Shown: positions 6,244-51,340 of the stretch, in pieces
Layout: each line of letters starts with the position of its first letter
Numbering within the stretch: the stretch's first letter is position 1
Source of the DNA: an uncultured Actinomycetota bacterium
Lineage (GTDB): Bacteria; Actinomycetota; Acidimicrobiia; Spongiisociales; UBA4744
DNA: 64,000 bases
Assembly (NCBI GenBank): GCA_963718995.1
Contig: CAVRAP010000006.1
Location: 5,795 to 69,794, forward strand
Reading direction: 5' to 3'
Notes under the pieces: model-generated
What the model was told of the DNA's origin: nothing
The model's input: the letters and a program-made list of their open reading frames with translations, nothing else
Database searches by the model: none
Program-made: the position numbers and the translations under genes

Positions 6244-6400
6244 CCCCCCTCCGCTTCTCGCCTTTTGGCGAGAACCACCTCCCCCCTTCTCGTCGAGCTT
6301 CGCTCGCACGTTTGGTTGGTGGGAGCGAGCCCCCCTCCGCTTCTCGCCTTTTGGCGAGAACCACCTCCCCCCTTCTCGTCGAGCTTCGCTCGCCAGGGGG
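6244..6400. repeat. tandem duplication (2 x ~88 bp) of a GC-rich palindromic element
   Basis: Unit 'cccccctccgcttctcgccttttggcgagaaccacctccccccttctcgtcgagcttcgctcgc' occurs twice. It contains the hairpin ttctcgcc-tttt-ggcgagaa. Sits between the convergent AKR and cbaA genes. Confidence 0.8.
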
Positions 6401-6409
6401 GAGGTTGGG

Positions 6410-8104
6410 CTACCAGGGGCGGATGGTGGGGGCCCGGCCGGAGCTGAGGTCGATATTGGCGATCTGATCTACCAGTTGCGGGCCGTAGGCGACCAGGATC
6501 AGGAGGACGGTTGCCACGATCCACGGTACCCAGCGGTCGAGCCAGAGGGGGGTGAGCTGGGGGTCCTGCTCGGATTCGGCCACGGGGATCTCGATCGCCT
6601 GTCCCGACCCGAGGCGCTCCTTGCCCCAGGCGGTGCGGGCCATGATCACGAAGTACATGATGGCGGACACCATGAGGATGGTGCCGCCCAAACCGACCCG
6701 CAGGAGGTGGCCGGTCCACTCCTCAGGAACGTACGGGGCTACCCCGAGCGGGGTCCGGCGCGGTGCGCCGAGCAATCCGAGTACATGCATGGCGTTGGAG
6801 AAAATGAGCATGCCGATGAACCAGGTCCAGGCCTGGATGACCGCCATCCGGGGTTTCCACAGCGGTTTGCCGGTGATCCACGGCACCAGCCAGTAGGAGA
6901 TGCCCATGAAGGAGAGGGTGGTGGCCGTGGCCACGGTCAAGTGAAAATGCCCGGGCACCCAGGTGGTGTTGTGGATCACGAGGTTGACGTTGTACGACGC
7001 GTTGGTGAGTCCGCCGATCCCACCGAACATGAACAGGATCCCGGCCAGGAGCTGCGCGGTGACCGACCCATCGCTCCACGGGAGCGCGCGCACCCAGCCC
7101 AGCAGGCCCTTCCCGCCCCGCCGGCGAGCCGCACGTTCGAGTGAGGCAATCACGGTGAAGGCGGTGAGCATCGACGGCAGGAACACCGAGTAGGTGAGCA
7201 CGGCGTGGATGTATTTCCATGCAGCCGGGACGCCCGGATCGGCGAACTGATGGTGGAAACCGAGTGGTACCGACAGCAACAGGAAGAGCCACATGGCCAG
7301 GCGGGCCAGCGAATCAGAGAACAGCTTTCCGCCCGCCTGTTTCGGCAGCATCCCGTACCAGGACACGTAGGCAGGGAGCAGCCAGAAGTAGACCAGCGGG
7401 TGGCCCGTGAACCAGAAATAGGTGCGGGCCAGTTGCGGGTCGGTACCTTCGATCAGTCCCAGCGACCAGGGCAGCAGCATGGTGAGGATCTCCACGGCGA
7501 TCCCCAGGGTGGCGAACTGCCACATGGCCATCGTGACCAAACCACCGAAAGCAATGAAGGGGGTCCTGGTGTCCGGATTGTCCTTGCGCCACGCCCGGTA
7601 GGTGAAGAAGAAGCCGTATCCCTCGATCCAGCTTCCGACCACCACCAGCGTCAGCCCGGCATAGAACGCCCAGTTGGCCTGGAGCGGCGGGTAGAAGGTG
7701 TAGAGGACCGATGCTTCGTCCAGAAGGATCGGAACGGCCGCCGTGACCAGACCGACCACCATGGTCCAGAAGCCGACCCGGTTGAGCCTGGGGAAGCGGA
7801 GCCCCCGCTTGAACCCGATCAACGTGGTCAGGGTGAAGAACCCGGTGATGAAGAAGGTCGTCCAGATCAGGGCGTTGAGCACCCCGTGAATCGTGAGACC
7901 CTGGTAGTAGGTCTTGAAGACGGGTTGCAGATACGGATAGAGATCTACCCCGGAGAACTGGAAGGCTTGCAAGGGACCAAAGAAGGTGCCGATCGACAGA
8001 GCGATAATGGCGACGAGAATATGGGCGCCAATGAACCGCTTGTCCTTCCTGGTCACCTCGTAGGTGGCCGGCTCGTCTCTTCCTATCTCTTCGCGAGTCG
8101 CCAT
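6410..8104 (-). CDS. cbaA: cytochrome c oxidase subunit I, ba3 (B-family) type
   Basis: 564 aa with 13 or more TM helices. The N-terminal region, overall length and the accompanying subunit II/IIa pair match the Thermus-type ba3 oxidase. Confidence 0.85.
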   Translation of the reverse strand: MATREEIGRDEPATYEVTRKDKRFIGAHILVAIIALSIGTFFGPLQAFQFSGVDLYPYLQPVFKTYYQGLTIHGVLNALIWTTFFITGFFTLTTLIGFKRGLRFPRLNRVGFWTMVVGLVTAAVPILLDEASVLYTFYPPLQANWAFYAGLTLVVVGSWIEGYGFFFTYRAWRKDNPDTRTPFIAFGGLVTMAMWQFATLGIAVEILTMLLPWSLGLIEGTDPQLARTYFWFTGHPLVYFWLLPAYVSWYGMLPKQAGGKLFSDSLARLAMWLFLLLSVPLGFHHQFADPGVPAAWKYIHAVLTYSVFLPSMLTAFTVIASLERAARRRGGKGLLGWVRALPWSDGSVTAQLLAGILFMFGGIGGLTNASYNVNLVIHNTTWVPGHFHLTVATATTLSFMGISYWLVPWITGKPLWKPRMAVIQAWTWFIGMLIFSNAMHVLGLLGAPRRTPLGVAPYVPEEWTGHLLRVGLGGTILMVSAIMYFVIMARTAWGKERLGSGQAIEIPVAESEQDPQLTPLWLDRWVPWIVATVLLILVAYGPQLVDQIANIDLSSGRAPTIRPW

Positions 8105-8608
8105 CTACTTCTCCACCACCGTAAGGCTCCCGAACATGAAGGCATGTCCGGTGCCGCAATACTCGGTGCAGACATAGGGGTAGTCGCCAACCTTGTCGAA
8201 GGTGTGGGTCAATTTGGATACTTGCCCGGGGAGGATCTGCATGTTGATGTTGGTGTTCTGGAGTTTGAATCCGTGCTGAATGTCCAGGCTGGTGACGTAG
8301 AAAGTGACCGTGGAGTTGACCGGGACTTCAACTTCTCTGGGCTCGAACTGCCAGGTGGTTGAATTGCCGATGATGTAGAGCTCGTAGACGCCGGGGGAGA
8401 GTTCCCGCAGGCCCGGGTTCTCCCACGGACCGGTGAGGTTGTTGGGATCTACCCGCTCCTCGGGAGAGGGGACCTGAAACCCGAGGGCAAAACCGGCGAC
8501 GGTGACGGCGGCGGCGAAGACGATCACCAGGATGATCGAGACCCGCATCCAGTTCTTCTCATACGGGTCGATGTGCAAGGTCTCTTTGGTTGCGCCTGAT
8601 TCGCTCAT
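8105..8608 (-). CDS. cbaB: cytochrome c oxidase subunit II, ba3 type (CuA)
   Basis: 167 aa with one TM helix and the CuA motif 'HGF...CTEYCGTGHAFM'. Start 'MSESGATKE' overlaps the stop of the IIa gene (ATGA). Confidence 0.85.
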   Translation of the reverse strand: MSESGATKETLHIDPYEKNWMRVSIILVIVFAAAVTVAGFALGFQVPSPEERVDPNNLTGPWENPGLRELSPGVYELYIIGNSTTWQFEPREVEVPVNSTVTFYVTSLDIQHGFKLQNTNINMQILPGQVSKLTHTFDKVGDYPYVCTEYCGTGHAFMFGSLTVVEK

Positions 8609-8751
8609 ACCGTGACACCTCGCGAGAGCAGGATCACATAAACGGATCCCCACAGGATGATGATCGCCAGCACGAACATCACCAGGATCGCCACCGTCCC
8701 TCGCGGTTGAAACTCCTCTTCCTCAATTTCGGTTCGCGCCTCGTCGGCCAT
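8605..8751 (-). CDS. cbaD: cytochrome ba3 oxidase subunit IIa (48-aa single-TM peptide)
   Basis: Translated by hand from the minus strand: MADEARTEIEEEEFQPRGTVAILVMFVLAIIILWGSVYVILLSRGVTV. This is the same single-helix architecture as Thermus subunit IIa. Not in the supplied ORF list because it is under 60 aa. Confidence 0.6.
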   Translation of the reverse strand: MADEARTEIEEEEFQPRGTVAILVMFVLAIIILWGSVYVILLSRGVTV

Positions 8752-8954
8752 TCGTATCCCCTCGGCGGTGGCCCGCACGCTCGGACCGAATCGGTGTGAT
8801 TCCGGGCGAGCTTAGGAAACGAATCCGCCTGCTGCAATGTCATGAAGAAAGTGAATTTGTGCACCGCTTTGGATTGAGCCGTCGGCGCGTCGGTTTAAGA
8901 TGAGGCCGCCTTCACGCTGGAGGGGTTTTGACTTCCGGAAACTCGAAGAGACTC

Positions 8955-9644
8955 ATGCGAACGGCGCTGGGGATGATCGTCGCCGGGTTGCTGATGGTGC
9001 TGATGGCTCCGATGGCGACCGCCCAGGAGGATCTGGGTGAAGACGTCTACGGACGCAACTGCGTGGGCTGCCATCAACCTGATGGGAGCGGCATAGCCGG
9101 GAACTTCCCGCCCCTGGCCGGCAACGCCAACGTTCAAGACGCTACTTATGTCGAAGAAGTCATTCGCAACGGCAAGCAAGGTGAGCTGGTGGTAGACGGC
9201 GTCACCTATGACGGGGTGATGCCGGCTTTTGGTCAGCTCTCCGATGAGGAGATCACCGCCGTCATCGACTACGTACAAAACCGGCTGGGTGTCTCGGGTG
9301 GCGGCGACGCCGGTACTCCCGCTGAGGAGGGTACGACCTTTCCCTGGAACCTCGTCATGCTTGGTTCGGCCCAGACCATCCTTGTCGTCGGTGCGGTGTT
9401 CCTCCTGACCTCACCCCGCAAGAAGAAGGAGCTGACCTGGTGGAACGCCTACGGCCGGGCTGTCTTGATCTTCTTGTTCTTTGCGCTGGCCACTACGTGG
9501 CTTCCCTCCTGGACGATGACCCAGGAGATCATCGCCGGAGCGCCGCGGCTCGTCGGTGATCTGATCGGATCCGGCTTGTGGATGGTGATGCTGGCGGCCG
9601 GTATCGGCGGCCTGATCTGGCTGCAGAGGACGGAACGGATCTGA
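8955..9644 (+). CDS. membrane-anchored mono-haem cytochrome c
   Basis: Signal peptide, 'CVGCHQPDG' haem site, 'GVMPAF' Met-ligand region and two C-terminal TM helices. Stop overlaps the next start (TGATG at 9642-9646). ORF list starts at TTG 8928. Confidence 0.8.
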   Translation: MRTALGMIVAGLLMVLMAPMATAQEDLGEDVYGRNCVGCHQPDGSGIAGNFPPLAGNANVQDATYVEEVIRNGKQGELVVDGVTYDGVMPAFGQLSDEEITAVIDYVQNRLGVSGGGDAGTPAEEGTTFPWNLVMLGSAQTILVVGAVFLLTSPRKKKELTWWNAYGRAVLIFLFFALATTWLPSWTMTQEIIAGAPRLVGDLIGSGLWMVMLAAGIGGLIWLQRTERI

Positions 9645-11445
9645 TGGCAGGCGATCTCGTGTTCCGCCAGGAGCTGCAGTTCTACGACGAAAATATTCCC
9701 TGCCTGGCCGCTTGTCCGGTCCATACCAACGCCGGGATGTACGTGGCCGCCATCGCCGACGGGAAGGATGAGCTGGCCTATTTGACGGCCCGGTTGCCGA
9801 ATCCGTTCGCTTCGGTATGCGGACGGGTCTGCGCAGCACCTTGTGAAGATGCCTGCCGGCGCGGCGAGATTGACCGCCCCATCGCCATCCGGGCTCTCAA
9901 ACGCTTCGTCACCGAGCAGTTTGGGCCGGAGACCGAGGGCAGCGACGTTTGGAAACAGGTGGCGGCACCGCCCGAGGTCGAGCGACCGGAAAGTGTCGGG
10001 ATCGTCGGGGGTGGTCCGGCCGGGCTGGCGGCCGCGCACGACCTGCGCCGTCTCGGCTATCAGGTAACCGTGTACGAAGCCACCCGGCAGCTGGGCGGGA
10101 TGATGTTGCTCGGCATTCCCGAGTACCGGCTCGATCGGACCCTGCTGGCCAACGAGATCAAGGTCATCGTGGATCTGGGTGTTGACGTGCACCTCAATAC
10201 CAAGCTCGGGTCGGACGTCATCGTTGGACTGAATTGCGGGAGAAGCACGACGCCCTGTTCGTGGCGATCGGCGCCAACCTCGGTCGCGGTCTCGACATCG
10301 AAGGCCATGAAGCCGATGGAGTGCTGCGGGCCATCGAGTTTCTCATCAACGCCAATCAAGGATTCCAGGTCGACGTCGGAGAACGGGTGGTCGTGATCGG
10401 AGGCGGAGACGTCGCTATGGACGCAGCCCGTACCGCCTTGCGCGCCGCCGAGTACGAAGAGATAGCTCTGGGCGGCTACGTGGAGGCGGAGGAACGGGCC
10501 CACATGACCGAAGCGATGGACGTGGCCCGCACCGCCGCCCGGTCCGGCGCCCAGCACATCACGGTCATGACACTCGAGTCCCGGGAGGAAATGCCCGCCT
10601 CTGAGTTCGAGGTCGAGGAAGCGATGCACGAGGGGATCGAGTTCTTCAACCGCCGCGGTCCGGCCAGGATCGTCACGGAGAATGGCAAGGTGACCGGACT
10701 CGAGACCATCAAGGTGCTGTCGGTTTTCGACGACGAAGGGCGGTTCAGCCCCACGTTCGATCAAGACGATCGGGCAACCGTCGACGCCGACACGATCATT
10801 CTGGCCATCGGCCAGGCCATCGACGTCGAAGCCCTCGGCGACAACGGACCGGAGATAAGCCCGCGCAAAACCATCCAGGTTGGTGCCGACAGCCTGGCCA
10901 CCTCGCTGCCGATGGTGTGGTCGGGCGGCGACGCCGCTCGCGGTCCCCGCACCCTCATCGACGCCATTGCCGATGGACGCAAGGCCGCCGCCGAGATCCA
11001 TCAGGCATTTGGTGGTGCGGTTGAGGAGCGGCAACCGGGCACCATGGTGCAACTCCAGCAGTTCCACCGCCTCGACGACATCTACGACAGGATCGGACGG
11101 GTGGACGTGCCGACGCTGCCGACCGATCGTCGGATCGGTCTGGCCGAGGTCGAGACCGGTTTCACCCCGGACCAGGCGCGCTGCGAAGCCAAACGGTGTC
11201 TGCGTTGTTTCGCCAACATCCTGCTGGACACCTCGATATGTGTGCTGTGCGCTCTGTGTGCCGATGTTTGCCCCCTGGACCTGATCGACCTGGTTCCCTC
11301 CGATGAAGTGGCGCCGGGTCTCCCGATCGGGACCGCTTTGACGCTGGATGAAACAAGCTGTATTCGTTGTGCGCTCTGTATCGAGCGCTGTCCCACCGAC
11401 GCCCTGTCGATGGGGCTCTGGACAGGAGTAGGAGTGCCTGTATGA
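9644..11445 (+). CDS. GltD-like NAD(P)H-dependent FAD/Fe-S oxidoreductase with C-terminal 2x[4Fe-4S] ferredoxin domain (apparent -1/+1 frameshift near 10230)
   Basis: N-terminal GltD-type cysteines 'CLAACPVH...CGRVCAAPCEDAC', FAD site 'IVGGGPAGLAAA', NAD(P) site 'VVVIGGGDVAMDAA' and C-terminal 'CLRCFANILLDTSICVLCALCADVCP...CIRCALCIERCP'. The two ORFs 9578..10396 and 10234..11445 join as '...SDVIVGLN/ELREKHDALFVAIGA'. Confidence 0.7.
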
Positions 11446-15937: not shown

Positions 15938-16123
15938 GGTTTCCAGTTTCCAGTTTCCAGTTCGTCCAGTAACCAGTTTCCAGTTATCAGTTATCAGTTA
16001 TCGGGTATCGGTATCAGAGAGTGGTATGCCGTTCGCTGGCTACTGGCTACTGGCTACCGGCTACTGGCTACTGGCTACTGGCTGACTGGCTGCTGGCTGC
16101 TGGCTACTGGCTACTGGCTACTG
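15938..16123. repeat. CAGT-core heptanucleotide tandem repeat array, inverted two-arm organisation
   Basis: Left arm (ccagttt)x3 then (tcagtta)x3 on the top strand. Right arm (ctggcta/ctggctg)x~12, which is (ccagtag)n on the bottom strand. Runs up to the stop codon of the MmpL gene. Confidence 0.9.
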
Positions 16124-20097: not shown

Positions 20098-21198
20098 TCA
20101 GGTACCGGCAACGAGAAGCGGAACCTGAAGCTCCTCCTTTGCCAGCCCGCCGTGATAGCCGGTCAGCCGCTTGTCCATGAAGCGGGGGATCAACAGGCGG
20201 CCCGGATCGGCAAGCAGGACCTTGTCCGGCAGTCGTCCGGCCAGGTCCGGATGGTCCCGGCCGGGCCCCAACCAGGTCCGGTACTCCGATGTCTCAACGA
20301 CCCGGCATGGCAGGCCGACGAGCGCCTTCGAGAGCTCGGCGTCGAACCGGCGCACCAGCACCGCTCGGGGGTCGCCGTAGAATTCTGGTCCCATCCGGTG
20401 CGGGATGAACGCCTTGTCGCCTTCGGCGTAGTCGATGTGCCCGTGATCGGCAGTTCCCACCATCACCGCGTGAGCCGGGAGGGCCGAGGCAATGCGGTCC
20501 CAGACGGCGGCCGCCGTCGAGATGGCTGCGGCGTACTCATCAGAGCCCTGGCCACCCACGTGGGCGGCCACGTCAACATTCGGGAAGTACGTGAAGATGA
20601 ACCGGCCGGGCACCGCAGCCAGCTGGGCGGTGGCGTCGATGATCTCGTTGATGGTCCACACGGCTTCATTGCGACATCCTCGATAGAGAACCCGGCTGAG
20701 CGGACTGTCCTGAAAGTTGCCGGGCTGCACGGTGATCGGCTCAATGTCATGGGCTCGCAAGCGCTGCCACAGGTTGGGGGCCGGCAGGAAGGAATCGTGG
20801 TCGAGGCGTACGGCTTCCCCCCAGGGTGTCGTCCACTTCAAGGTGTTCACGACCTGACCGGCGGCGGGAACATACAGTTGGTGCCCGATCAGACCGTGGG
20901 TCCCGGGCGCCAGCCCGGTGGCGATGGTCGCCAGGTTGGCGCTGGTCGTGGTGGGAAAGACCGCGTCGAGAGCCGCGGTCCGGGCGTTGCGGAGGGAAGC
21001 CGCCCCGGGGTGCTGGAGCTGGGCATCGCCCAAGCCGTCGAAAAGGACGAGCACGTAGGTGGCGGCCTCCGGGATGTGCCCGGCGAGGTGAGCGTGCAGC
21101 CGCTCGGCCGGGGCAGATCCGGTCAGGCGATGTTCGAGCTCCGCCATCAGGTTGAGCAGGCTGCCGCCGGCGTAGTCGGGAATGGAGGGTTCAATCAC
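20098..21198 (-). CDS. alkaline phosphatase-family (nucleotide pyrophosphatase/phosphodiesterase-like) metalloenzyme
   Basis: Metal-ligand pattern 'FDGLGD...T(T)(S)...DHGH' typical of the AP superfamily. GTG start at 21198. Confidence 0.6.
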   Translation of the reverse strand: MIEPSIPDYAGGSLLNLMAELEHRLTGSAPAERLHAHLAGHIPEAATYVLVLFDGLGDAQLQHPGAASLRNARTAALDAVFPTTTSANLATIATGLAPGTHGLIGHQLYVPAAGQVVNTLKWTTPWGEAVRLDHDSFLPAPNLWQRLRAHDIEPITVQPGNFQDSPLSRVLYRGCRNEAVWTINEIIDATAQLAAVPGRFIFTYFPNVDVAAHVGGQGSDEYAAAISTAAAVWDRIASALPAHAVMVGTADHGHIDYAEGDKAFIPHRMGPEFYGDPRAVLVRRFDAELSKALVGLPCRVVETSEYRTWLGPGRDHPDLAGRLPDKVLLADPGRLLIPRFMDKRLTGYHGGLAKEELQVPLLVAGT

Positions 21199-21307
21199 AG
21201 TTTCCAGTTTCCAGTTATCAGTTGTCAGTTATCAGTCATCAGTCATCAGTCATGAGTCATGAGTTATCAGTTGCCAGTTGCCAGTTGCCAGTTGCCAGTT
21301 GCCAGTC
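21197..21307. repeat. CAGT-core heptanucleotide tandem repeat array (unidirectional)
   Basis: (ccagttt)(ccagtta)(tcagttg)(tcagtta)(tcagtca)x3(tgagtca)x2...(gccagtt)x5. Lies in the divergent promoter region between 21198(-) and 21455(+). Confidence 0.9.
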
Positions 21308-22613: not shown

Positions 22614-22650
22614 AGGGCCCGTGGCGGAAGCCGCGGGCCCTTTTTGTTTG
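22614..22650. terminator. bidirectional rho-independent terminator
   Basis: 'aaagggcccgtggcggaagccgcgggccctttttgttt': a 7-bp GC stem followed by a T-run. Sits between convergent genes. Confidence 0.75.
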
Positions 22651-22784
22651 GGTTGGATCTCCCCCCTGCGACCGAAGCGAGTGGGTTGGGGGGAGTACCG
22701 CCGCAGGCGGGGAGGGGGGCCGGTTCTCACCAACTAGGCCTGATGCCGCCACGCAGCGGAGCGGAGAGGAGAGGGTGGAACTCT

Positions 22785-26448: not shown

Positions 26449-26536
26449 TCAGTTTCCAGTTTCCAGTTTCCAGTTTCCAGCAAGGAGGCGGTCCTCGATT
26501 GCGGACTGGCTACTGGCAACTGGCTACTGGCTACTG
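26449..26536. repeat. CAGT-core heptanucleotide repeat array, inverted two-arm organisation, inside the nuo cluster
   Basis: (cagtttc)x4, then 'caaggaggcggtcctcgattgcgga', then (ctggcta/ctggcaa)x4. Fills most of the 163-bp nuoD-nuoH spacer. Confidence 0.9.
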
Positions 26537-28895: not shown

Positions 28896-28899
28896 CGGC

Positions 28900-34628: not shown

Positions 34629-36703
34629 ATGCCGGTAGACGAAGACAAGTCCCCGCAACGCAAGGCCGCCAAGAAACCCGCCGCCAAGAAACCGGCGGCG
34701 CCGCCCGCCTCTCCGGCCTCCCCGGCGAAACCAACCGCCGGAACGCCGGCCGCCCAACCACCTGCGGAGGCAGCCTCCGCCGATCTGCCCTATTTCAGCC
34801 TGCTCACCGAAGACGACCTGTTCCTGTTCAACGAAGGCTCGCACTTCCGGCTCTACGAGAAGCTGGGTTGTCATCTCGTCGAGGTAGAAGGCGTGGCCGG
34901 GGCCTATTTCGCTGTGTGGGCGCCGGACGCCGAGTACGTGTCGGTGATCGGGGACTTCAACTTCTACAACCCGGGCGAGCACCCGCTCAAGCCGAAAGGA
35001 GCCTCGGGGATCTGGGAGGGGTTCATCCCCGGGATCGAACAAGGCGAGACGTACAAGTTCCACATCGGCTCCAAGTTCAACGTGTACCGGGTGGACAAAG
35101 CCGACCCCTTCGCGACCTACTCCGAGGTGCCGCCCAAGACGGCCTCTCGCGTCTGGGATCTCGCTTACGAGTGGGGTGACGCTGACTGGATGAAGGTCAG
35201 AGAGGTCCATAACGCCCACAACGCCCCCATATCGATCTACGAGATGCACCTGGGCTCGTGGCGGCGGGTTCCCGAGGAGGGCAACCGGTCGCTCACGTAC
35301 CGGGAGACCGCTCCTCTGCTGGTCGAACACCTCCAGAAGATGAACTTCACGCATGTGGAGTTCCTGCCGGTCATGGAGTATCCGTTCGGTGGTTCGTGGG
35401 GATACCAGTCGACCGGCTACTTCGGTCCGACCTCCCGATTCGGTAGCCCGGAGGACTTCATGTTCCTCATCGACACGCTGCACCAGGCGGGGATCGGCGT
35501 GATCGTCGACTGGGTGCCTTCGCACTTCGCCACCGACGAGCACGGCCTCGGCTATTTCGACGGCACGCACCTGTACGAGCATTCGGACGAGCGCGAAGGG
35601 CTTCCATCCCGACTGGGGGAGCTGGATCTTCAACTACGGCCGCAACGAGGTGCGCAGCTTCCTCATCTCCAGCGCCATCTCCTGGCTGGACCGGTATCAC
35701 ATCGACGGGATCCGGGTTGATGCGGTCGCCTCGATGCTGTACCTCGACTACTCCCGCGAAGACGGCGAGTGGATCCCCAACGAGTACGGCGGCAACGAGA
35801 ACATCGAAGCGATCACTCTGCTGCGGCGGTTCAACGAGGAGGTCTACCGCCAGTTCCCGGACGTGCAGACCTTCGCCGAGGAATCGACCGCCTGGCCGTC
35901 GGTGTCCCGGCCCGACCTACATCGGCGGACTCGGGTTCGGCTTCAAGTGGGACATGGGATGGATGCACGACACCCTGGCCTACATGCAACTCGATCCGCT
36001 GTTCCGTCAGTACCACCACAACGACCTGACGTTCCGGGGTCTGTACGCCTTCACGGAGAGTTTCACGCTGCCGCTCTCCCACGACGAGGTGGTGCACGGC
36101 AAGGGTTCGCTGGCCGCCAAGATGCCGGGCGACGACTGGCAGAAGTTCGCCAACCTGCGCCTGCTCTACGCCTACATGTTCGCCCAGCCCGGCAAGAAGC
36201 TGCTGTTCATGGGCGGCGAGATCGCCCAGTGGGCCGAGTGGAACCACGACGGTTCGCTGGCCTGGGACCTGCTGGATTGGGAACCGCACCGCGGCATCCT
36301 CAAGCTGGTCGGCGACCTCGGCCGGGTCTACCGGGATGAGCCGGCGCTCTACGAGTGGGACACCGACGACCGCGGCTTCGAATGGGTGGAGGCCAACGAC
36401 TGGCAGGCGAGCACCCTCTCATGGTTGCGACGGGGCGGGTCGACCGACGACATCATCCTGGCCATCTTCAACTTCACCCCGGTCGCCCGGTACAACTACC
36501 GCATGGGCGTGCCGCGCGAGGGCCACTGGGAGGAGATCCTCAACACCGACGCCGCCGATTACGGTGGCAGCGGTCTGGGCAACCTCGGAGGGGTGGAAGC
36601 TCACAAGACCGGCGCCCACGGCCGGCCGTTCTCGGTGAATCTGACGTTGCCTCCCCTGGGGGCGGTGTTCCTGAAGAGTTCTCAGGAGCTGAGTTCCCCG
36701 TAA
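34629..36703 (+). CDS. glgB: 1,4-alpha-glucan branching enzyme with Ala/Lys/Pro-rich N-terminal extension (two apparent frameshifts near 35595 and 35915)
   Basis: GH13 motifs '[13 protein letters not shown]', '[17 protein letters not shown]', 'FAEESTAWP' and '[13 protein letters not shown]'. The three ORFs 34629..35720, 35650..36339 and 35717..36703 are successive frames of one gene. Confidence 0.8.
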
Positions 36704-36746
36704 CCAGTTGCCAGTAACCAGTAATTGGCAGTTCCAGTTGCCAGAA
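36699..36746. repeat. short CAGT-core heptamer array
   Basis: 'aaccagttgccagtaaccagtaattggcagttccagttgccag' overlaps the glgB stop. Confidence 0.7.
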
Positions 36747-36761
36747 TGTGCTGGATGACTG

Positions 36762-38154
36762 ATGACTGATGGCTTTTCTCTGAAGCAGCGACTGATCGAA
36801 CAGATCCGGGTTGAGGGTCCGATGCCGTTCGAGGATTTCATGGCGGCAGCCCTCTATGACCCCGAGGATGGGTTCTTCACGTCCAAGTCTCTGCGGTCCG
36901 TCAAGTCCGGCGATTTCCTGACCAGCCCCGAAGTAAGCCCCCTCTTCGGCGAAACCCTCGCCAAGTTCGTAGACCAGGAACTCTCCACCCTCCCCCTCAC
37001 CCCCTCCCGCCGGCGGGAGGGGGAAAGAGAAACGACGCCCCGCCGCCCACGCCGGGGCAGGTGCCCTGACCGCGCGGGTCGATGCGCAGAACTCCCTCTC
37101 CCGCTGGCGGGAGAGGGTTGGGGAGAGGGTGGAAGAGGCCGCACGGAAGAAGACAGTCTCCAGCCAGGAAGACACCCCAGACTACGTCCTCCCCCGGCTC
37201 TGCCGGGGGAGGTGGCCCGGCCCAAAGGGCCGGGTCGGAGGGGGCAGGTCCCCGAACAGTCCGATCGAGAGCAGGACTCCCTCTCCCGCTGGCGGGAGAG
37301 GGTTGGGGAGAGGGTGGAACCAACCCCGCTCCTCGTCGAGGTCGGAGCCGGTTCCGGGTCGCTCCTCAAACCCCTCCTCGCCACCCTCGAGACCCCGATC
37401 GAGCCCTGGGCCGTCGAGGCATCCCCGGCCGCTCGTGAGGCTCTGGGAGAGCTGATCGATCCCGACCACATCGTCCGCACCCTCGACGATCTGCCCGACC
37501 ACTTCTCCGGCGTCGTGGTCGCCAACGAACTCCTGGACAATCTGCCGGTCGCCATCGCCGTCCGCACCGGTCATGGCTGGACGGAACGCTGGGTAGGAGT
37601 CCAAGACGATGATCTGGTCCTCGTCCCCGTCGACGCTCGCCCCGAGGTCGCCGACATGGGCCGAGCAATTCGGCCTCCCCGCCCCCGAACGAGGCCTGGT
37701 CGAGGTGCAACTGGCCGCAGCGGAGTGGCTGCAATCGATCCTGACCCGTCTCGACTCGGGAACGATCCTGTTGATCGACTACGGCGACACCGCCGAGAAC
37801 CTGGAGAAGCGGCGGGTGGAGGGAACCCTCCGCACCTACCGGGCCCACCACCTCGGCCCCCACCCCCTCGACGAACCGGGAGAGACCGACATCACCGCCG
37901 ACGTCAACTTCACGGCGCTGATCGATCGAGCCGTGCAACTGGGAGCGAGCATCGAGTACCACCGCCAGGACGACTTCCTCGACCAGTTCGGGTTGCGAGC
38001 CCGCCTCAGCAAACTCCGCCACCAAGAACTGGACCTGGCCCGCGACGGCGACCCGATGGAGCGATTGAAGGTGCGGTCCACCCGGACCGAAGCCGAGACG
38101 CTGCTCCACCCGCGTGGCCTGGGCGACTTCCGTGTCCTGGTGGTCCGAAAGTGA
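36762..38154 (+). CDS. MidA/NDUFAF7-like SAM-dependent methyltransferase (DUF185), interrupted in frame by a repeat insertion and carrying an apparent frameshift near 37660
   Basis: N-terminal 'PMPFEDFMAAALYDPEDGFFTSK...GDFLTSPEVSPLFGE', SAM site 'LVEVGAGSGSL' and a C-terminal part in ORF 37609..38154. The 606-aa ORF 36762..38582 is the N-terminal part followed by an out-of-frame run-on. Confidence 0.65.
36990..37330. repeat. three copies of a GC-rich palindromic element (core cctctcccgc-tg-gcgggagagg) inserted in frame in the MidA-like gene
   Basis: 'ctccctctcccgctggcgggagagggttggggagagggtggaa' occurs at about 37086 and about 37270. A variant 'ccctcccgccggcgggaggggg' occurs at about 37005. 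The insert translates to 'LPLPLAGEGWGEGG'. Confidence 0.8.
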
Positions 38155-38204
38155 GGGGCCGCCCAACTGGGCGGCCCCTCGACGATTGTTGGTTTGAGCG
38201 ATGC

Positions 38205-40430
38205 TTACGGCGTAAGCAACAGGGCTGCGTCGGCGGTGATGAACCCTGCACCGTCGGCGTCGCCAGCGTCACCTTTGGCAACACCCCAACAAATCTCCTC
38301 CGAAGCCCCCGAAGGTTCGAGGAGCACGGTCCTGCAACCATATTCCATCCCAATGGCAGCCTCCTCAAGGATGGTTTCGACCTCCCACTGTTCGAGTCCC
38401 GGGTTCTTCTGCAGCATGAGGGCTGCGATGCCGGCAACGTGGGGGCTGGCCATCGACGTGCCTCCGAGGAAGAAGTAATTCGTCTTTCCCCGGTTCAGTT
38501 GGTAGGGGCCGACGACCCACGACCCGGGGAGCGGCCACATCCAGATCCTGACCATCTAGCTCCCGACTGGAGAAGTCGGTGATGTAGTAGTCGCCAACGT
38601 CCGTCGGGTCCGCAACGTTCACGTTCCACCACCAGGAGCGATTCCCATCTGGCCACTCGCCAACCCAGCCGCTGGCCGCGACCGAGATCACCGGTTCGTA
38701 GGCACCCGGATAACCCATTCCGAGGTTGCCCTCGTTGCCTGCCGATGTGACGACAATCACTCCGTTCTCAATGGCGTAGTCGTTGGCTGCCCTCTCTACG
38801 GGCTCCTGGACAGGACCGCCGAGACTCATGTTGATGACGACTGGGCCGTCGAGGACACCATCCTTCTTCAAGTTGGCGACGTAGGTAATGCCAGCCGCTA
38901 CCACCGATGACCCCCATCCGGAGCCATTGTCGCGGCACTGTGACCGGGATGACCGTCGCCATCGGGGCTACGCCGTTGATCGGCGTGCCGCCCAGGCTGT
39001 AGCCCAGGATGGTGCTGGTCACGTGGGTGCCATGCGAGTTGGTGTCATGTTCCCACTTATTGGGCTGTTCGGAGATGTTTCCCTGCCCTCCTCCACCGCC
39101 GCCAAATGACTTCGCCAGGTCGGTCGCGATCCGCTCTTCGGGGAGGTTGCCCCACGTGTGCCATATACCACCGGTGTCGATCACGGACGTCAACGGCGTT
39201 GACCACGACTGGAATAACGCTTGGTAGAGCCCTGCGATTCCTTCAGGGGCGGTACGTTCCATCAGAGGAAGGAAGTCGCTGGGGACTGCCGTCTGCGCCA
39301 CCGATAGAGCCGTTCGCGACCTGATGATTGACCCTCAATGAACGGCTTGTCACCACCGTTGCTGCGAAGAAACCGTCAGATCCCGAAGGATGCTGCAGCA
39401 TTCACAGCGGCGGAGAGGTCATCGTCGATGGCTGACCGTAGCTCGAACCGAGGGACATGTTGATGGTGTCGATCAGGTCCTTGGCTTTACGGTCCACGTC
39501 GGGTCGACTGCGAACTCCATGCCCTGGATGAGCGCAATTCCCGAGCAAGATGTCGAAACGGACGAGCAAACCTTCACGGCGTACAGCTCGACTCCTGGAG
39601 CAACGCCGTTTTCGCCGCCGATGATGTCGGCGACATGGGTTCCGTGTCCGCCTCCGGGTCCGTCATCCGGCGGATAACGTCATCTGGTTCCTCGAGCGCG
39701 TTGCCCCTACCAACCCAGTTGGATCCAACGAAGTCGTAGCCTCCGACAACCTTGGCGGTCGGGAACGTGCCATCTTCGACCACTGTCGGGTTGTCGTTGG
39801 CGAAGTCGATACATCAGCTGGATTGCCAATGGGGTGCCACCGAGGGCGGCGTGGTAGTAGTCGATGCCGCTGTCGAGCACCGCGACCTTGACTCCAGATC
39901 CGTCGACGCCAGCGTTCTGAACGGCTGCTGCCGCCGATATAGGGAACCGTTTCGCTCAGGTCGAGTTCGTAATTGCCAACTTCCTTGATTCGCAGCAGAC
40001 CGATGAGTCGGAAGCCAGGTCGGTGAGCTGAGCAGCGTCGATCTTACGAACACTGCGTTTAGGACTCTCTGCGTACCGGCGAGCTCCTTGGCACCTGTCG
40101 CCGTCTCAGGCTGGCCAGGAATTGGTCTGCTCTTGCTGGGACCTCAACGAGGGCTTGCCGCGGCCACGGCTTGCCGCACTCGGCCACGGAGGCCGGTGAG
40201 CGCTCAACCTGATGCTGACGTCAATCTCGCCCGCGTCGCTCGACTCGAGAACGTCTTGTCGGCGGCGCTGGCCGTTATCGGCGAGTCCAGTTTGAGACCT
40301 CATCGAATCTGGCTCGATCGACTCGATCGGTGCTGCCTCTTCGCTCCGACGGTACGGCGAGTGCCAACATGGTCAAGAGCGCGACGATCAGTACAACGAA
40401 ACGTTTCACGAGATGCCCTCCTCGTATCTC
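38205..40430 (-). pseudogene. subtilisin-like (S8) serine protease, disrupted by multiple frameshifts
   Basis: The catalytic triad is split across frames: 'VIDTGG' and 'HGTHVTS' in 38768..39301, and 'GTSMASPHVAG' in 38205..38555. A putative signal peptide 'KRFVVLIVALLTMLALAVPSE' sits in 40275..40553. At least four frame changes. Confidence 0.55.
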
Positions 40431-42039: not shown

Positions 42040-42350
42040 GCCGCTGCGGTACTTGCCACCCTCTCCGCGTCGCCGCCTGTGGCAGCGACGCGCCTCTCCC
42101 GCTTGCGGGAGAGGCTGGGAAGGCGTGGTGTGTGTTGGTTGGGTGGGGCGGTCTCGCGGGAGGATGTCTTGCCACCCTCTCCGCTTCGCCGCCTGTGGCA
42201 GCGACGCGCCTCTCCCGCTTGCGGGAGAGGCTGGGAAGGCGGGGTGTGTGTTGGTTGGGTGGGGCGGTCTCGCGGGAGGATGTCTTTTCACCCTCTCCGC
42301 TTCGCCGCCTGTGGCAGCGACGTGCCTCTCCCGCCGGCGGGAGAGGCAAG
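42040..42350. repeat. tandem array (~2.7 x 118 bp) of GC-rich palindromic element containing cctctcccgc-tt-gcgggagagg
   Basis: Unit 'caccctctccgc.tcgccgcctgtggcagcgacgcgcctctcccgcttgcgggagaggctgggaaggcg.ggtgtgtgttggttgggtggggcggtctcgcgggaggatgtctt' is repeated. Confidence 0.85.
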
Positions 42351-44656: not shown

Positions 44657-44696
44657 CGACAGGAACTGACGGGAACGGAAGAAGGAAGGTACCCCC

Positions 44697-46142: not shown

Positions 46143-46218
46143 CGTCTCCGGCGGAAGGGCCCCGTCGGGCTGCTAGCGTGCAGCTTCGAAGTTCCTGCGG
46201 GTGGAGTAGCGGACCTTT

Positions 46219-46250
46219 GACTTCAGGGTGGGCGTTGCCCACCCTGAAGC
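46219..46250. terminator. 12-bp perfect stem-loop (cttcagggtgggc-gttg-cccaccctgaag)
   Basis: Read directly. Lies between rpmG and the dehydratase gene. No T-run follows, so it may be an attenuator or processing site. Confidence 0.45.
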
Positions 46251-46266
46251 TTTGAGGAGGGAAGTG

Positions 46267-47130: not shown

Positions 47131-47134
47131 CGCA

Positions 47135-48048: not shown

Positions 48049-48109
48049 TCGGAGTTTTACAGCCGATTTCGCGGGACCGTATACTTGCCCGTCACGTTGG
48101 ACCCCTCTT

Positions 48110-48185
48110 AGGGGTGTAGCTCGAAGTTGGTTAGAGCGCCGGTCTCCAAAACCGGAGGTTGTGGGTTCGAGTCCCTCCACCCCTG
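48110..48185 (+). tRNA. tRNA-Trp (CCA)
   Basis: Acceptor aggggtg/cacccct, D-arm 'gctcgaagttggttagagc' and anticodon loop 'ctccaaa'. Conserved position directly upstream of secE. Confidence 0.8.
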
Positions 48186-48210
48186 CTGATCGATACGAAA
48201 AGGTGTTGGC

Positions 48211-48510
48211 ATGAATCGAGAGATGCGCCGCCTCCAGGAGCGCGAAGAGCGCCTGCAGAAAAAGCAGGGAAAGCGGCGACCCCAAAAACGACCCCAAAAA
48301 GGTCAGGAGCAGCTGAACTTCTTCGCCCGTGTGCGGAAGTTCCTGAAGGAAGTCCGGGTCGAGCTGAAACGAGTTTCGTGGCCGTCGCGCGAGCAGATGG
48401 TTGCTTTCACGACCGTTACGATCATCACCAGTGCCGCCGTGACGGTGTTCGTATTCGGATTGGACTTCCTCTTCAAAGAGGGCATTCTCTTACTCCTGGC
48501 GAGGAATTGA
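48211..48510 (+). CDS. secE: preprotein translocase subunit SecE
   Basis: Basic N-terminus and a single C-terminal TM helix 'FTTVTIITSAAVTVFVFGLDFLF'. Synteny with nusG. Confidence 0.85.
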   Translation: MNREMRRLQEREERLQKKQGKRRPQKRPQKGQEQLNFFARVRKFLKEVRVELKRVSWPSREQMVAFTTVTIITSAAVTVFVFGLDFLFKEGILLLLARN

Positions 48511-48515
48511 TCGAC

Positions 48516-49145
48516 ATGGCCAAAGTGGTTGAGGAACAGCAAGAAGAAGAGACCGGAGCGGACGAGGAGAAGGTTGAAGAAGCCCCCCGTCCGGTCAGTC
48601 CATTCGATCTGCCCGGCGACTGGTATGTGATCCATTCGTACTCCGGGTACGAGAACAAGGTGAAAGTCAACCTCGAGACGCGAACCCGATCAATGCACAT
48701 GGAGGACCGCATCTTCGAGGTGGCGATCCCGATGGAAGATGTTGTCGAGTTCAAGGGTGGTAAGAAAGTCACCACCCCGAAGAAGGTATTCCCCGGGTAC
48801 ATCCTCGTCAGGATGTACCTCGACGATGACTCCTGGTACGCGGTGCGCAACACTCCCGGTGTGACGGGTTTCGTCGGATCCGGCATCAAGCCGACACCTC
48901 TGGCCAGACGCGAAGTTGAGCGATTCCTGGGAGTCCAGGAAGAGGAAGAAACCAAGAAGGCCCCACGGTTCAAGCCGGCGTGGGAGATCGGGGAAAGCGT
49001 GCGGGTGGTAACCGGCCCGTTCGCCGATTTCAACGGCGTGATCGAAGACATGAACATCGATCAGCAGAAGGTGACCGTGCTGGTGAACATCTTCGGTCGG
49101 GATACCCCGGTCGAATTGGGATTCGGCGACATCCAGAAGCAATAG
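48516..49145 (+). CDS. nusG: transcription termination/antitermination factor NusG
   Basis: NGN domain '[14 protein letters not shown]' and KOW '[22 protein letters not shown]'. Acidic N-terminal tail. Confidence 0.9.
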
Positions 49146-49240
49146 GAGTTATCAGTCTTCCGAACAAACGGATGACTGAGGAACTGAGAGGGCGGCCGCA
49201 GGCCGACCGACTGAAGACTGAAATACTGAGGACTGAAATC
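49146..49240. repeat. degenerate CAGT/ACTG heptamer cluster with central palindrome gggcggccgcaggccgacc
   Basis: 'tcagtcttc...gactgaggaactgag...gactgaagactgaaatactgaggactgaaatc' in the nusG-rplK spacer. Confidence 0.6.
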
Positions 49241-49669
49241 ATGGGACGAAAACGACTAGCAGCCATCTTGAAGCTTCAAATCCCGGCCGGCCAGGCCAGC
49301 CCGGCGCCGCCGGTCGGTCCCGCACTCGGCCAGCACGGGGTGAACATCATGGACTTCGTGAAGGCGTACAACGCTGCCACGGAGAGCCAAACGGGCACCA
49401 TCGTTCCCGTCGAGATCTCGATCTATGAGGATCGCAGTTTCACCTTCATCACCAAGACCCCCCCGGCGGCGGTCTTGCTTCGGCAGGCCGCCCGGTTGGA
49501 GAAAGGTTCGCCGGAACCCCACAAGGAAAAAGTCGGGTCGGTCACCAGCGATCAGGTCCGTCAGATCGCCGAAACGAAGATGGTCGACCTGAACGCCAAC
49601 GATATCGAAGGGGCGATGAAGATCATCGCCGGAACCGCCCGTTCGATGGGGATTGTTGTCAAGGGTTGA
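49240..49669 (+). CDS. rplK: 50S ribosomal protein L11
   Basis: '[30 protein letters not shown]'. Confidence 0.95.
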
Positions 49670-49752
49670 TGCCTTTGGCAGTGATCAGTACTCAGTCTTC
49701 AGTCGTCAGTACTGATAACTGGCAACTGACAACTGCGGCACGAAGTGCCGCT
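49670..49752. repeat. CAGT-core heptamer array plus 7-bp GAAG-loop hairpin (gcggcac-gaag-gtgccgc)
   Basis: (cagtgat)(cagtact)(cagtctt)(cagtcgt)(cagtact)(gataact)(ggcaact)(gacaact), then the hairpin. Lies in the rplK-rplA spacer. Confidence 0.8.
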
Positions 49753-49810
49753 CTAGGAATTGGGAGGCTGCGGGCACAAAGTCCGGGCCGTTTGAACCAC
49801 AGGAGGAAAG

Positions 49811-50506
49811 ATGCCGAAGCACGGCAAGAAATACAACGATGCGTTGAAACTCTTCGACGCTACGACCGCCTATCCGGCCGCTGCGGCAGTTCAGCTGGTC
49901 AAGTCCATGTCCTTCGTCAAGTTCGATGAAACGGTCGAAGCTGTCTTCAAGCTCAGCATCGATCCCCGCAAGGCCGATCAGTTGGTGCGCGGCACCGTCA
50001 GCCTGCCACACGGCACCGGTAAAGATGTTCGGGTCGCAGTCTTTGCGCAAGGCGACAAAGTGCGCGAAGCCGAGGCGGCCGGGGCCGACCTCGTCGGCGG
50101 CGCCGAATTAGTTGCAGAATTCCAGGGCGGTCGAGCTCTCGAATTCGAAGTCGCCATCGCCACCCCCGATCTCATGGCCGAGGTCGGAAAGCTCGGGCGC
50201 GTGTTGGGCCCCCGCGGCCTGATGCCGAATCCCAAAGCCGGCACCGTCACGTTCGACGTGGGCAAGGCGGTCGAGGAGTTCAAGGCCGGCCGTATCGAGT
50301 ATCGCAACGATCGGTACGGCAATGTGCATGCTCCGATCGGCAAGGTCTCATTCACCGATGAGCAACTGGATGAGAATCTGGCGGCACTCACCGCCGAAAT
50401 TGTCCGGGCGCGTCCGGCGTCGGCCAAGGGGCGGTTCGTTCGCAACCTCTCGGTCTCGTCGACGATGGGTCCGGGGGTACGGGTCGACGTCGGCAAGATG
50501 CTGTAG
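49811..50506 (+). CDS. rplA: 50S ribosomal protein L1
   Basis: 231 aa with '[19 protein letters not shown]' and '[12 protein letters not shown]'. Confidence 0.95.
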
Positions 50507-50527
50507 ACAGTCTGGATCAGTTTTCAG

Positions 50528-50551
50528 TCGGGCGGCCCTCCGGGGCCGCCC
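50528..50551. terminator. stem-loop cgggcggccc-tccg-gggccgcccg followed by ctttgtt
   Basis: 10-bp perfect GC stem 22 nt after the rplA stop. Nearly identical to the hairpin after rplL. Confidence 0.6.
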
Positions 50552-50559
50552 GAGCTTTG

Positions 50560-51340
50560 TTGGTGGTGTGCCGGCCTGAGCTTTGTTGGTGGTGTGCCGT
50601 CCCCCCTCCGCCTCGCTGCGCTCGGCACCTCCCCCCTTCCTACTCACTTCGTTCGCAGGGGGGAGGGGTTCGCAGGGGGGAGGGCTTCGCAGGGCGGGGA
50701 GGGAGGTTGGGGAGAGGGCTTGGGGGTCCTCGTTCTCGAGCGAGGGCACGGTGGTTCCTTGGTGGGAACCTGGACTGACGGCGGTGCGAAGGCCGTCCCG
50801 CTGCCGCTCTTCTACGGCGATACGTCAGGGTAGGGGCTGTCGTATCGCCGGAGTGACACCGGTGCCCGTTCGTGCCTCGGTCTTGGGTGGGGGCGGTTGA
50901 CAACCACCCTTGGACAAGGACCCCCAAAGCAAAACGTTGAGTTGTCAACCGGAGTGTCGCGCAATGCGCGGCGTGTGTCTACTCGTTTTGGTGTTGAAGG
51001 TCTGCGGGTCTTTGTTGGTGGGAACCATCCCCCCTCCGCCTCGCTGCGCTCGGCACCTCCCCCCGTCTTGCTCACTTCGTTCGCCGGGGGGCGCGAGGCA
51101 TCCCCTCTCCGCCTGGCTGCGTCGGCACCTCCCCCCGTCTTGCTCACTTCGTTCGCCGGGGGGAGGGCGCGAGGCATCCCCTCTCCGCCTGGCTGCGCTC
51201 GGCACCTCCCCCCGTCTTGCTCACTTCGTTCGCCGGGGGGCGCGAGGCATCCCCTCTCCGCCTGGCTGCGTCGGCACCTCCCCCCGTCTTGCTCACTTCG
51301 TTCGCCGGGGGGAGGGGAGCGAGGCATCGACTTGGCGTTG
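50560..51340. repeat. ~0.8-kb block of GC-rich repeats in the rplA-rplJ leader (direct 22-bp duplication, inverted gttgacaac...gttgtcaac, and ~4.5 tandem ~64-bp units)
   Basis: Tandem unit 'ctcgctgcgctcggcacctccccccgtcttgctcacttcgttcgccggggggcgcgaggcatcccctctccgcctgg' from about 51030 to 51335. Related copies lie at 50600-50720. Confidence 0.85.

Follow-up and report, generated by a model that had tools for sequence, protein, structure and literature searches.

BoxC/PIT/TMECO-type three-block repeats at five sites in a 64-kb stretch of an Acidimicrobiia genome

Introduction

BoxC and PIT elements, reportedly described by Bergler in 1992 and by Hoyne and Maher in 2000, appear to be the closest described relatives of the repeats reported here from 64 kb of DNA of an uncultured Acidimicrobiia bacterium (Actinomycetota; GenBank assembly GCA_963718995.1, contig CAVRAP010000006.1, positions 5,795 to 69,794; the whole of this stretch is termed the window). 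The BoxC of the 1990s, the PIT element of Hoyne and Maher, and TMECO are the same element (Holder et al., 2015; PMC4666352), written as CCCTCNCCC-N3-6-GGGNGAGGG-N3-GGGNGAGGG (PMC4666352). In vitro, the isolated single strand of the Escherichia coli element adopts a stable triplex, and the loci that carry this element show unusual variability (PMC4666352). The published search for such triplex motifs allowed loops of 1-6 nt only, and the hosts that it listed were Proteobacteria (PMC4666352).

Three further systems bear comparison. The same E. coli sequences, read on the G-rich strand, constitute a G-quadruplex-hairpin-duplex switch motif (Kaplan et al., 2016; PMC5100583), in which GGGAGAGGG-TTG-GGGAGAGGG provides four G3 tracts beside a hairpin. 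Repetitive extragenic palindromes (REP) and the bacterial interspersed mosaic elements (BIME) are GC-rich extragenic palindromes at the 3' ends of genes, are often clustered, and are known targets for the insertion of insertion sequences (IS) (PMC2817692; PMC3333891; PMC3733652). The mirror repeats of eukaryotic H-DNA, which share homopurine-homopyrimidine mirror symmetry with the repeats of the window, are associated with replication stalling and instability (summarized in PMC4666352).

Results

A Three-Block Unit Is Common to the Five Sites

A sequence-only reading of the window had described a single family of repeats built around a 22-bp palindrome at five sites (sites 1 to 5; Table 1). 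Repeats are present at all five, but the palindrome unites only two of them. A search of the window for the 22-bp core (CCTCTCCCGC-NN-GCGGGAGAGG) gave five exact matches and one with two mismatches compared to none expected, confirming that the core exceeds the expectation for GC-rich DNA; the matches start at 37001, 37095, 37280, 42093, 42209, and 42325, all within sites 3 and 4. The same search did not find the core at sites 1, 2, and 5, where the block sequences are instead CCCCCCTCC, CCTCCCCCC, and GGGGGGAGG.

The common denominator of the five sites is a unit of three blocks of 8-9 nt, namely a homopyrimidine block (Y), its inverted complement (R), and a mirror copy (H or RH), exemplified by CCCCCCTCC ... 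CCTCCCCCC ... GGGGGGAGG at sites 1 and 5 and by CTCCCCCC ... GGGGGGAG ... GAGGGGGG at site 2. A scan requiring three exact 8-nt blocks within 45 nt returned 10 loci that covered every site, lay entirely within the five sites, and included one not previously listed (37188-37244); the same scan of 200 dinucleotide-preserving shuffles returned none. An exact mirror block also lay at most 45 nt away from 10 of the 12 asymmetric pyrimidine/purine hairpin loci, while the two remaining hairpins had a mirror block with one mismatch. At least six distinct block sequences from the window and its relatives all obeyed this complement-plus-mirror rule, and the diagnostic feature of the repeats is the third, mirror block and not the palindrome.

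A mirror copy cannot be produced by direct or inverted duplication and is exactly what the third strand of a triple helix requires. The layout therefore allows one DNA strand to form a hairpin in whose major groove the third block lies as the base-triple strand. Where the blocks are ordered H-Y-R, H is the pyrimidine image of R in the same reading direction, corresponding to C+.G-C and T.A-T triples. Units ordered Y-R-RH instead end in a reversed copy of R, for which the triples are G.G-C and A.A-T. The elements encode nothing of their own and fall into two sequence types: a BoxC-like type with short or long loops based on CCTCTCCC (sites 3 and 4) and an element of ~100 nt based on CCTCCCCCC, termed A1 (sites 1, 2, and 5, with a degenerate copy in site 3). 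The G-rich short-loop form could alternatively fold as a G-quadruplex, as its sequence suggests, but since A1 and the long-loop elements lack four closely spaced G tracts, a G-quadruplex is not the common denominator of the sites.

Relationship to BoxC, PIT, and TMECO Elements

Scanning one genome per species for the 22-bp core gave at least 120 loci, and the matches listed span at least seven phyla, including Alpha-, Beta-, and Gammaproteobacteria, Polyangia, Chloroflexota, Armatimonadota, Acidobacteriota, Planctomycetota, Gemmatimonadota, and Bacteroidota. In the flanks of these matches the hairpin was followed by GGGGTGAGGG or GGGGAGAGGG, and a text search with these strings led to the published E. 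coli elements (PMC4666352; PMC5100583). The third block accompanied 126 of 149 core hairpins assessed from at least 120 genomes (94 within 8 nt and 32 at 9-66 nt; none in 23), compared to 3 of 149 random control positions, none of them at short range and all three at long range. Every displayed example with the third block at 9-66 nt had a nested hairpin in its loop, the same design as the site 4 units of the window.

Exact matches to the TMECO pattern occurred at 37094-37129 and 37279-37314 in the window and at 10284-10319 in a related metagenome contig (L121), while sites 1, 2, 4, and 5 fall outside this narrow pattern because their loops or blocks differ. A 47-mer from the two exact copies of the window, which lie in the MidA gene, matched 4986 of 5426 complete E. 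coli genomes with 85% identity over 41 nt, the 3' TGGAAG included, for example at tCCCCTCTCCCttgaGGGAGAGGGttaGGGTGAGGGtggaagg between nrdD and nrdG. Judging by sequence, the known family of these repeats is BoxC/PIT/TMECO and not REP: they share with it the pyrimidine/purine/mirror design, a mostly intergenic location, and, as with E. coli BoxC, loci that vary among relatives. What is new here, and differs from published TMECO, is an Acidimicrobiia (Actinomycetota) host, long-loop versions with a nested hairpin and the 100-nt A1 relative with extra conserved modules and another block sequence, head-to-tail tandem amplification, and an in-frame hot spot within a protein-coding gene.

The earlier likening to REP/BIME-type palindromes did not hold when these elements are taken as they are defined. 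No GTAG or CGTC head was seen beside any hairpin when the units and the alignment were read by eye, the clusters are direct head-to-tail arrays rather than alternating ones, and the diagnostic third block is present. Unlike species-specific REPs, the sequence is conserved across phyla, and no REP-associated tyrosine transposase (RAYT) is known for the BoxC class. One element in a relative does contain an IS, a likeness to REP/BIME. Compared to H-DNA, which consists of long mirror repeats and arises in duplex DNA under supercoiling, a unit here has its three short blocks on a single strand, separated by defined loops.

BoxC/TMECO-type motifs were also observed in at least 120 viral contigs from IMG/VR (L251-L330), several with two to four copies. 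Such contigs are a possible vehicle for the spread of the motif across phyla.

The A1 Element

Metagenome sequences were scanned for CCCCCCTCC-N12-42-CCTCCCCCC-N12-42-GGGGGGAGG, and several subfamilies were present among the matches listed; the one matching sites 1 and 5 recurs in related metagenome contigs. An alignment of 16 elements defined A1 as ~100 nt in the order leader (GTTGGTGGGAACC), H, G-[variable hairpin]-CA, Y, loop 2 (TTCTCGCTCGCTTCGCTCGCA), and R, such that the leader and loop 2 are conserved and the hairpin nested in loop 1 is variable. RNAalifold on a MAFFT alignment recovered the Y-R stem but misaligned the nested hairpin, and loops were therefore folded separately: all 13 distinct loop-1 sequences folded with at least five pairs into several different stems, with z <= -3 in 12 of 13 and a mean z of -4.6. 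Watson-Crick folding of A1 as single-stranded DNA gave two adjacent hairpins with the H block left single-stranded, and the DNA fold of the full site 1 element had z scores of -3.6 and -5.3.

The covariance model R1, built from 16 copies, scored the full site 1 element, which belongs to the training set, at 81 bits. Outside the training set it recovered site 2 on the minus strand (54.8 bits, E 1.8e-10), the degenerate copy in site 3 (Table 1), and two copies each in the related contigs L249 and L250. The interpretation of TTTGTTGGTGG as a mere terminator tail was rejected, as the alignment shows it to be conserved A1 leader that overlaps the terminator tail at site 5. In Rfam no family matched the repeats and only tRNAs reached the gathering score in the 64-kb window, and 50400-51600 gave no meaningful hit at E <= 1, whether to 6C RNA, to the L10 leader, or to any other family. 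A literature search on Acidimicrobiia repeats yielded nothing specific.

Also among the matches listed by the metagenome scan were three other kinds of three-block element (in L136, L138, L163, L173, L179, and others; L168, L175, L223, and others; and L146, L160, L174, and L177). One kind has a fourth block that pairs with H to give a nested double hairpin, one has a long hairpin (CCTCCCCCC-TTCCCGT...ACGGGAA-GGGGGGAGG), and one is a single conserved locus on long contigs.

Variation Among Relatives

Syntenic contigs were identified through MidA (L121, L242, L244, and L246) and through the L1 protein (L249, ~94% identical, and L250, ~84.5% identical), and orthologues of site 1 through the metagenome scan (L226 and L127/L152). 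Relatives have elements at each of the four sites compared, and these elements differ from one another in copy number, hairpin sequence, and even type. Sites 3, 4, and 5 vary in copy number, element type, or content between the window and L121, L249, L250, L244, and L246, as judged against flanks aligning at 76-96% with no formal control set.

The sequence-only reading had proposed recent amplification and a comparison of copy number between strains, and copy number indeed differs at sites 4 and 5. At site 4, the 2.6 units of the window correspond to one unit plus a remnant in L121 and one unit in L246. At site 5, L249 and L250 each have a single left and a single right A1 element at the same positions, and all three site 5 expansions are therefore lineage-specific; the rplA-rplJ spacer is 993 bp in the window compared to 720-736 bp in these contigs. 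The tandem expansions at both sites thus appear specific to the lineage of the window, and they are probably recent since relatives at 84-94% nucleotide identity have single copies. The alternation of 72- and 77-bp units at site 5 implies at least two rounds of duplication. Recent amplification did not extend to site 1, where all three relatives also have two units. Units of one genome resemble each other more closely than those of different genomes do, and unit 1 of L226 has decayed. The shared array is therefore old and was recently homogenized in the window, so that only its perfect identity is recent.

Replacement of elements accompanied the change in number. Site 4 of L244 has the same design on other blocks (CCCTCGCC, CCCCTCCC, and GGGAGGGG), whereas L250 and L249 have an A-type element (CCCCCTCC, CCTCCCCC, and GGGGGAGG) with different loops, a pattern that does not track relatedness. 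In the left site 5 element of L249, the loop-1 hairpin is perfect yet different, which argues for a swap and not point mutation. In L249, an IS of ~1.1 kb with rve-type transposase fragments (L249 1404-2590) lies in loop 2 of the site 4 element, between CCTCCCCC and GGGGGAGG, which recalls the IS elements that target REP hairpins. A candidate origin of the 53-nt site 4 spacer from the right flank was rejected, as 1481 of 2000 shuffles scored at least as high as the local alignment.

Elements Within the MidA Reading Frame

As previously noted from the sequence, one cluster lies in a coding region: the open reading frame (ORF) of MidA reads through the site 3 elements. The first BoxC copy, translated in frame as ...PLPLAGEGWGEGG..., is orthologous to the single copy of L121, and the peptide of the second is kept in MidA of relatives. 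Relatives with intact MidA genes of 385-408 aa have the BoxC-encoded peptide SLSRRRERVGERVE at the same place, while the more distant homologues P0057 and P0088 have no insert. L244 and L246 have a reversed A1 element in this loop, in L246 together with a BoxC, and the combinations of elements differ among relatives while always remaining in frame.

The window gene is 225 bp (75 codons) longer than that of L121 with the frame kept. A 185-bp part of this excess, comprising the A1-like element and a BoxC, is homologous to the arrangement in L246, and the difference from L121 reflects either insertion in the window or deletion in L121. In the AlphaFold model of L121 MidA (mean predicted local distance difference test score, pLDDT, of 89), the insert (~residues 73-110) is flanked by a helix and by the first methyltransferase-fold strand, with no secondary structure and a pLDDT of ~48-64. 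The elements are thus predicted by this model to lie in a disordered loop.

Rickettsia palindromic elements (RPE), which Ogata and colleagues reportedly described in 2000, are said to insert in frame into protein-coding genes where an extra surface segment is tolerated. The in-frame repeats in the MidA loop, with their low predicted confidence and lack of secondary structure, resemble this situation in the one gene examined here, but the sequence and host are unrelated and RPEs are 100-150 bp without a triplex design.

The frame of the window MidA is broken at 37655 by a shift of +1; the repeats lie 340 nt upstream. Further single-base insertions relative to L121 break the frames of glgB (35595 and 35914), a 245-aa gene (42504), and a DUF2157 gene (43554), while the 7-kb nuo operon has no such indels relative to L121. 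In the assembly of the closest relative rpoB is split, and together with these indels this makes long-read sequencing error likely, the alternative being that the affected genes are pseudogenes.

Beyond MidA, window positions 38157-40274 correspond to L121 11160-14977, such that most of a 192-aa gene and a gene for an S8 peptidase of ~1070 aa are missing from the window, with weak remnants at 39413-39971. Both genes lie between MidA and an M48 peptidase gene in L121, L242, and L244, and L246 is also without them.

Geometry and Genomic Context of the Sites

Array geometry was obtained with Tandem Repeats Finder and a repeat finder (Table 1) and revises the first description in several places. 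Site 1 has two units as described, but of 86 bp instead of ~88 bp, sharing 66 nt of 100% identity. Unit 1 begins immediately 3' of the stop codon of the aldo/keto reductase gene and has the G/T-rich leader of unit 2 in place of its R block, while 5 nt separate the end of the full element from the stop of convergent COX1. Site 2, described as an array, is a single element that follows the minus-strand alpha/beta-hydrolase gene, 41 nt downstream of its stop, and lies just beyond the terminator hairpin of the plus-strand gene.

Site 3, described as three tandem copies, is not a simple tandem array and contains two identical 42-nt BoxC-type copies 185 bp apart, an opposite-oriented variant motif, and the degenerate A1-like element. 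The variant motif (3a), also present in L121, has the geometry of BoxC but is reversed in orientation and has a variant block sequence; the A1-like element (3c) lies within the 185-bp segment absent from L121 and has its homologue in the A1 element that L246 carries in MidA. The tandem nature of site 4 was upheld with a slightly different geometry (described as ~2.7 x 118 bp). Its units are long-loop BoxC-type elements consisting of CCCTCTCC, a nested hairpin (GCGTCGCCGCC/GGCAGCGACGC), CCTCTCCC, gcttgc, and GGGAGAGG, located at 42059-42114, 42175-42230, and 42291-42346 and each followed by a 53-nt G/T-rich spacer.

At site 5 the proposed ~4.5 units of 64 bp are incorrect, and three separate expansions are present instead. 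On the left, the leader is duplicated (26 bp x 2.2, 50548-50603) and so is the R block (17 bp x 2.6, 50651-50694). On the right, the 3.9 units of 72/77 bp are equivalent to a 149-bp double unit x 2.0 (97% matches), have CATC in common at the unit junctions, and end ~170 nt upstream of rplJ.

Table 1. Repeat elements, flanking genes, and associated features in the window.
Feature	Position	Strand	Composition or context
Site 1 unit 1, A1-type	6244-6327	+	H CCCCCCTCC, nested hairpin, Y CCTCCCCCC, loop 2
Site 1 full A1 element	6305-6409	+	Leader GTTTGGTTGGTGGGAGCGAG, H CCCCCCTCC, hairpin CTTCTCGCC/GGCGAGAA, Y CCTCCCCCC, loop 2 TTCTCGTCGAGCTTCGCTCGCCA, R GGGGGGAGG
Site 1 flanking genes			Left, aldo/keto reductase (+); right, COX1 (-)
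Site 2, single A1 element	22652-22744	-	Three-block scan, covariance model
Site 2 flanking genes			Left, EB_dh-like (+); right, alpha/beta hydrolase (-)
Site 3a, short-loop three-block motif	36988-37023	+	CCCTCCCCC-tca-CCCCCTCCC-gccggc-GGGAGGGGG; inside MidA ORF
Site 3b, BoxC/TMECO copy 1	37094-37129	+	CCCTCTCCC-gctggc-GGGAGAGGG-ttg-GGGAGAGGG
Site 3c, degenerate A1-like element	37183-37266	-	CCTCCCCC / GGGGGAGG / GGAGGGGG; covariance model 29.4 bits, E 7e-5
Site 3d, BoxC/TMECO copy 2	37279-37314	+	42-nt repeat identical to copy 1; in-frame DSLSRWRERVGERVE
Site 4 array	42052-42347	+	2.6 tandem units x 116 bp, 96% matches; between convergent genes
Site 4 flanking genes			Left, hypothetical (+); right, hypothetical (-)
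rplA terminator-like hairpin	50528-50553	+	11 pairs, 10 G-C; T-rich tail overlaps A1 leader
Site 5 left	50548-50694	+	One A1 element (50575-50672), just after rplA terminator
Site 5 right	51004-51328	+	A1 element amplified head-to-tail, 3.9 units of 72/77 bp
Site 5 flanking genes			Left, rplA (+); right, rplJ (+)
Heptamer repeats	15939-16123, 21198-21306, 26450-26536, 36692-36722, 49711-49735, 53076-53166

The repeats are mostly extragenic, as had been stated: of the four intergenic sites, three have convergent genes on either side and the fourth separates rplA from rplJ. Homologues of MidA and L1 were from Acidimicrobiia metagenome-assembled genomes, which speaks against the cyanobacterium (Gloeobacter) that GC content and the heptamer repeats had at first suggested. 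Strong GC-rich terminator-like hairpins with T-rich tails directly precede the A1 elements at site 2 (22616-22645) and site 5 (50528-50553).

Several features adjoin the repeats. Upstream of rplJ, the two A1 elements enclose a block of ~340 nt (~50700-51000) that is highly conserved in L249 and L250, includes the inverted repeat GGTTGACAAC...GTTGTCAACC (~50897-50950), has no Rfam match, and may be an L10 leader or a promoter. The rplJ ORF (51500-52609) encodes 369 aa, of which Pfam L10 covers only residues 1-98, and the remainder is made up of in-frame tandem repeats of 48 bp x 7.7 and 15 bp x 4.7 (52062-52429 and 52439-52509); the products of L249 and L250 are likewise long (375 aa). Separate heptamer tandem repeats (CAGTTAT, CTGGCTA, GTTTCCA, CAGTTGC, and others) occupy intergenic spacers, and some differ in length compared to L121 (insertions at 36715-36753).

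Discussion

On balance, we lean toward the explanation that the five sites hold repeats of the BoxC/PIT/TM class that are non-autonomous and prone to structure formation, with slippage and recombination driving their expansion, contraction, and exchange. When DNA becomes single-stranded during replication or repair, transient fold-back structures would arise on it and cause the polymerase to stall. Stalling would promote slippage at short homologies, resulting in tandem gain or loss of units, as well as template switching or recombination with other copies, resulting in swaps of hairpins or whole elements. Elements would persist at tolerated spots such as gene 3' ends, one long spacer, and, in frame, one disordered protein loop, and this explanation would require no cellular function. 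The sequences themselves establish the three-block architecture, its enrichment, the match to E. coli BoxC, and how the elements change among relatives. That the structures arise in vivo and bring about these changes is our inference, a fold-back structure being the likely trigger; the higher-order 149-bp unit and the CATC junctions would fit stepwise slippage.

Several observations weigh against this explanation. In E. coli, no sign of a triplex came from in vivo dimethyl sulfate (DMS) footprinting or from double-stranded oligonucleotides (PMC4666352). Elements are retained at the same sites in lineages down to ~76-85% identity, and this retention, with the conserved leader and loop 2 of A1, hints at selection that a pure "junk" model does not predict. 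Dispersed copies that share sequence outside the blocks also need a means of spread for which slippage alone is insufficient. No donors were found in all the sequence compared for the 143-bp and 40-nt MidA sequences, the 53-nt spacer, or the site 5 middle block, and the sequence basis is 64 kb of this genome.

A conceivable, if unlikely, alternative is that the repeats are functional 3'-untranslated or leader elements acting as U-tract-independent terminators, as barriers to 3' exonucleases in the manner of REPs, or in the tuning of rplJ, with hairpins that possibly include an RNA triple helix on the H-Y-R strand. Such roles are consistent with where the intergenic elements lie, namely at the 3' ends of genes shortly beyond a stop codon or terminator or else between rplA and rplJ, and with their retention at the same site in several lineages, the maintenance of a nested hairpin with differing stem sequences, and the very stable predicted folds. 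Both A1 elements of the rplA-rplJ spacer are in H-Y-R order on the transcribed strand, and pyrimidine-motif triplexes can form in RNA (PMC4666352). However, PIT/BoxC elements had no promoter or terminator activity in E. coli (PMC4666352), no Rfam family matches the repeats, and orientation is not scorable at convergent gene pairs. The free variation in type and copy number at orthologous sites, the interruption of one element by an IS, and the decay of others to remnants are also unlike a required signal.

It is improbable that the repeats are mobile elements resembling non-autonomous miniature inverted-repeat transposable elements (MITE) or REPs, moved in trans (e.g., by an HUH/Y1 transposase acting on single-stranded hairpins) and possibly carried between phyla by phages. 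Mobility would explain why dispersed A1 copies have the leader and loop 2 in common although these lie outside the blocks, why the same site holds different element types in close relatives, and why A1/BoxC combinations vary in the MidA loop, and it agrees with the occurrence of BoxC-type motifs in viral contigs and in at least seven phyla. Nevertheless, no target-site duplication or terminal inverted repeats were visible at the sites compared, which included no clean filled-versus-empty pair at close divergence, the sequences as read have no GTAG/CGTC head, and the arrays are head-to-tail. No BoxC transposase is known from the literature after 30 years, and the only transposase seen (rve, in L249) belongs to an IS inserted into an element and is not its partner. 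Function and mobility may each coexist with expansion and swapping by slippage and recombination.

Decidedly doubtful is the broader proposal that three-block elements are a pan-bacterial class selected for base-triple formation in vivo, with A1 as an undescribed structured element of Acidimicrobiia that has its own function or mobility system. If true, triples would form on single-stranded DNA or RNA, in the latter as an ENE-like 3'-end triple helix on the H-Y-R strand, and the fact that all three blocks change in concert from variant to variant would count as comparative evidence for a biological role of intrastrand triplexes. Alternative elements would then be exchanged in cassette-like fashion at two hot spots, the MidA loop and site 4.

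An assembly artefact, with arrays or copy numbers arising from mis-assembly or consensus errors, is very improbable: compared to L121, the frames of glgB, MidA, and two other genes are indeed interrupted by single-base indels, rpoB is split in the metagenome assembly that holds the closest relatives (taken as long-read from its metaFlye-style "contig_N" names), and C6/G6 runs are error-prone for long reads, but the same kinds of element occur at the same sites in at least six independent assemblies from different samples, single long reads span arrays under 350 bp, consistent substitutions between units form the higher-order 149-bp repeat, and the extra 225 bp in MidA keeps the frame.

Expansion and swapping of BoxC/PIT/TM-class repeats by slippage and recombination therefore remains the explanation that we favor. 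BoxC/PIT/TM elements have been known since the 1990s, and an actinobacterial lineage is now added to their range with 85% identity to the E. coli element. That at least six block sequences keep the complement-plus-mirror relation is a comparative signal supporting a triplex constraint over a simple palindrome, and the long-loop and 100-nt relatives would escape published searches limited to loops of 1-6 nt. The sites provide clear examples, with states before and after, of arrays that expanded in tandem, hairpins that were swapped, elements that were replaced, and repeats kept in frame within a gene, and are concrete substrates for asking whether the third block, rather than the hairpin, drives instability. 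In practical terms, such elements yield spurious or extended ORFs, variable protein loops, and disagreement between the assemblies of related strains.

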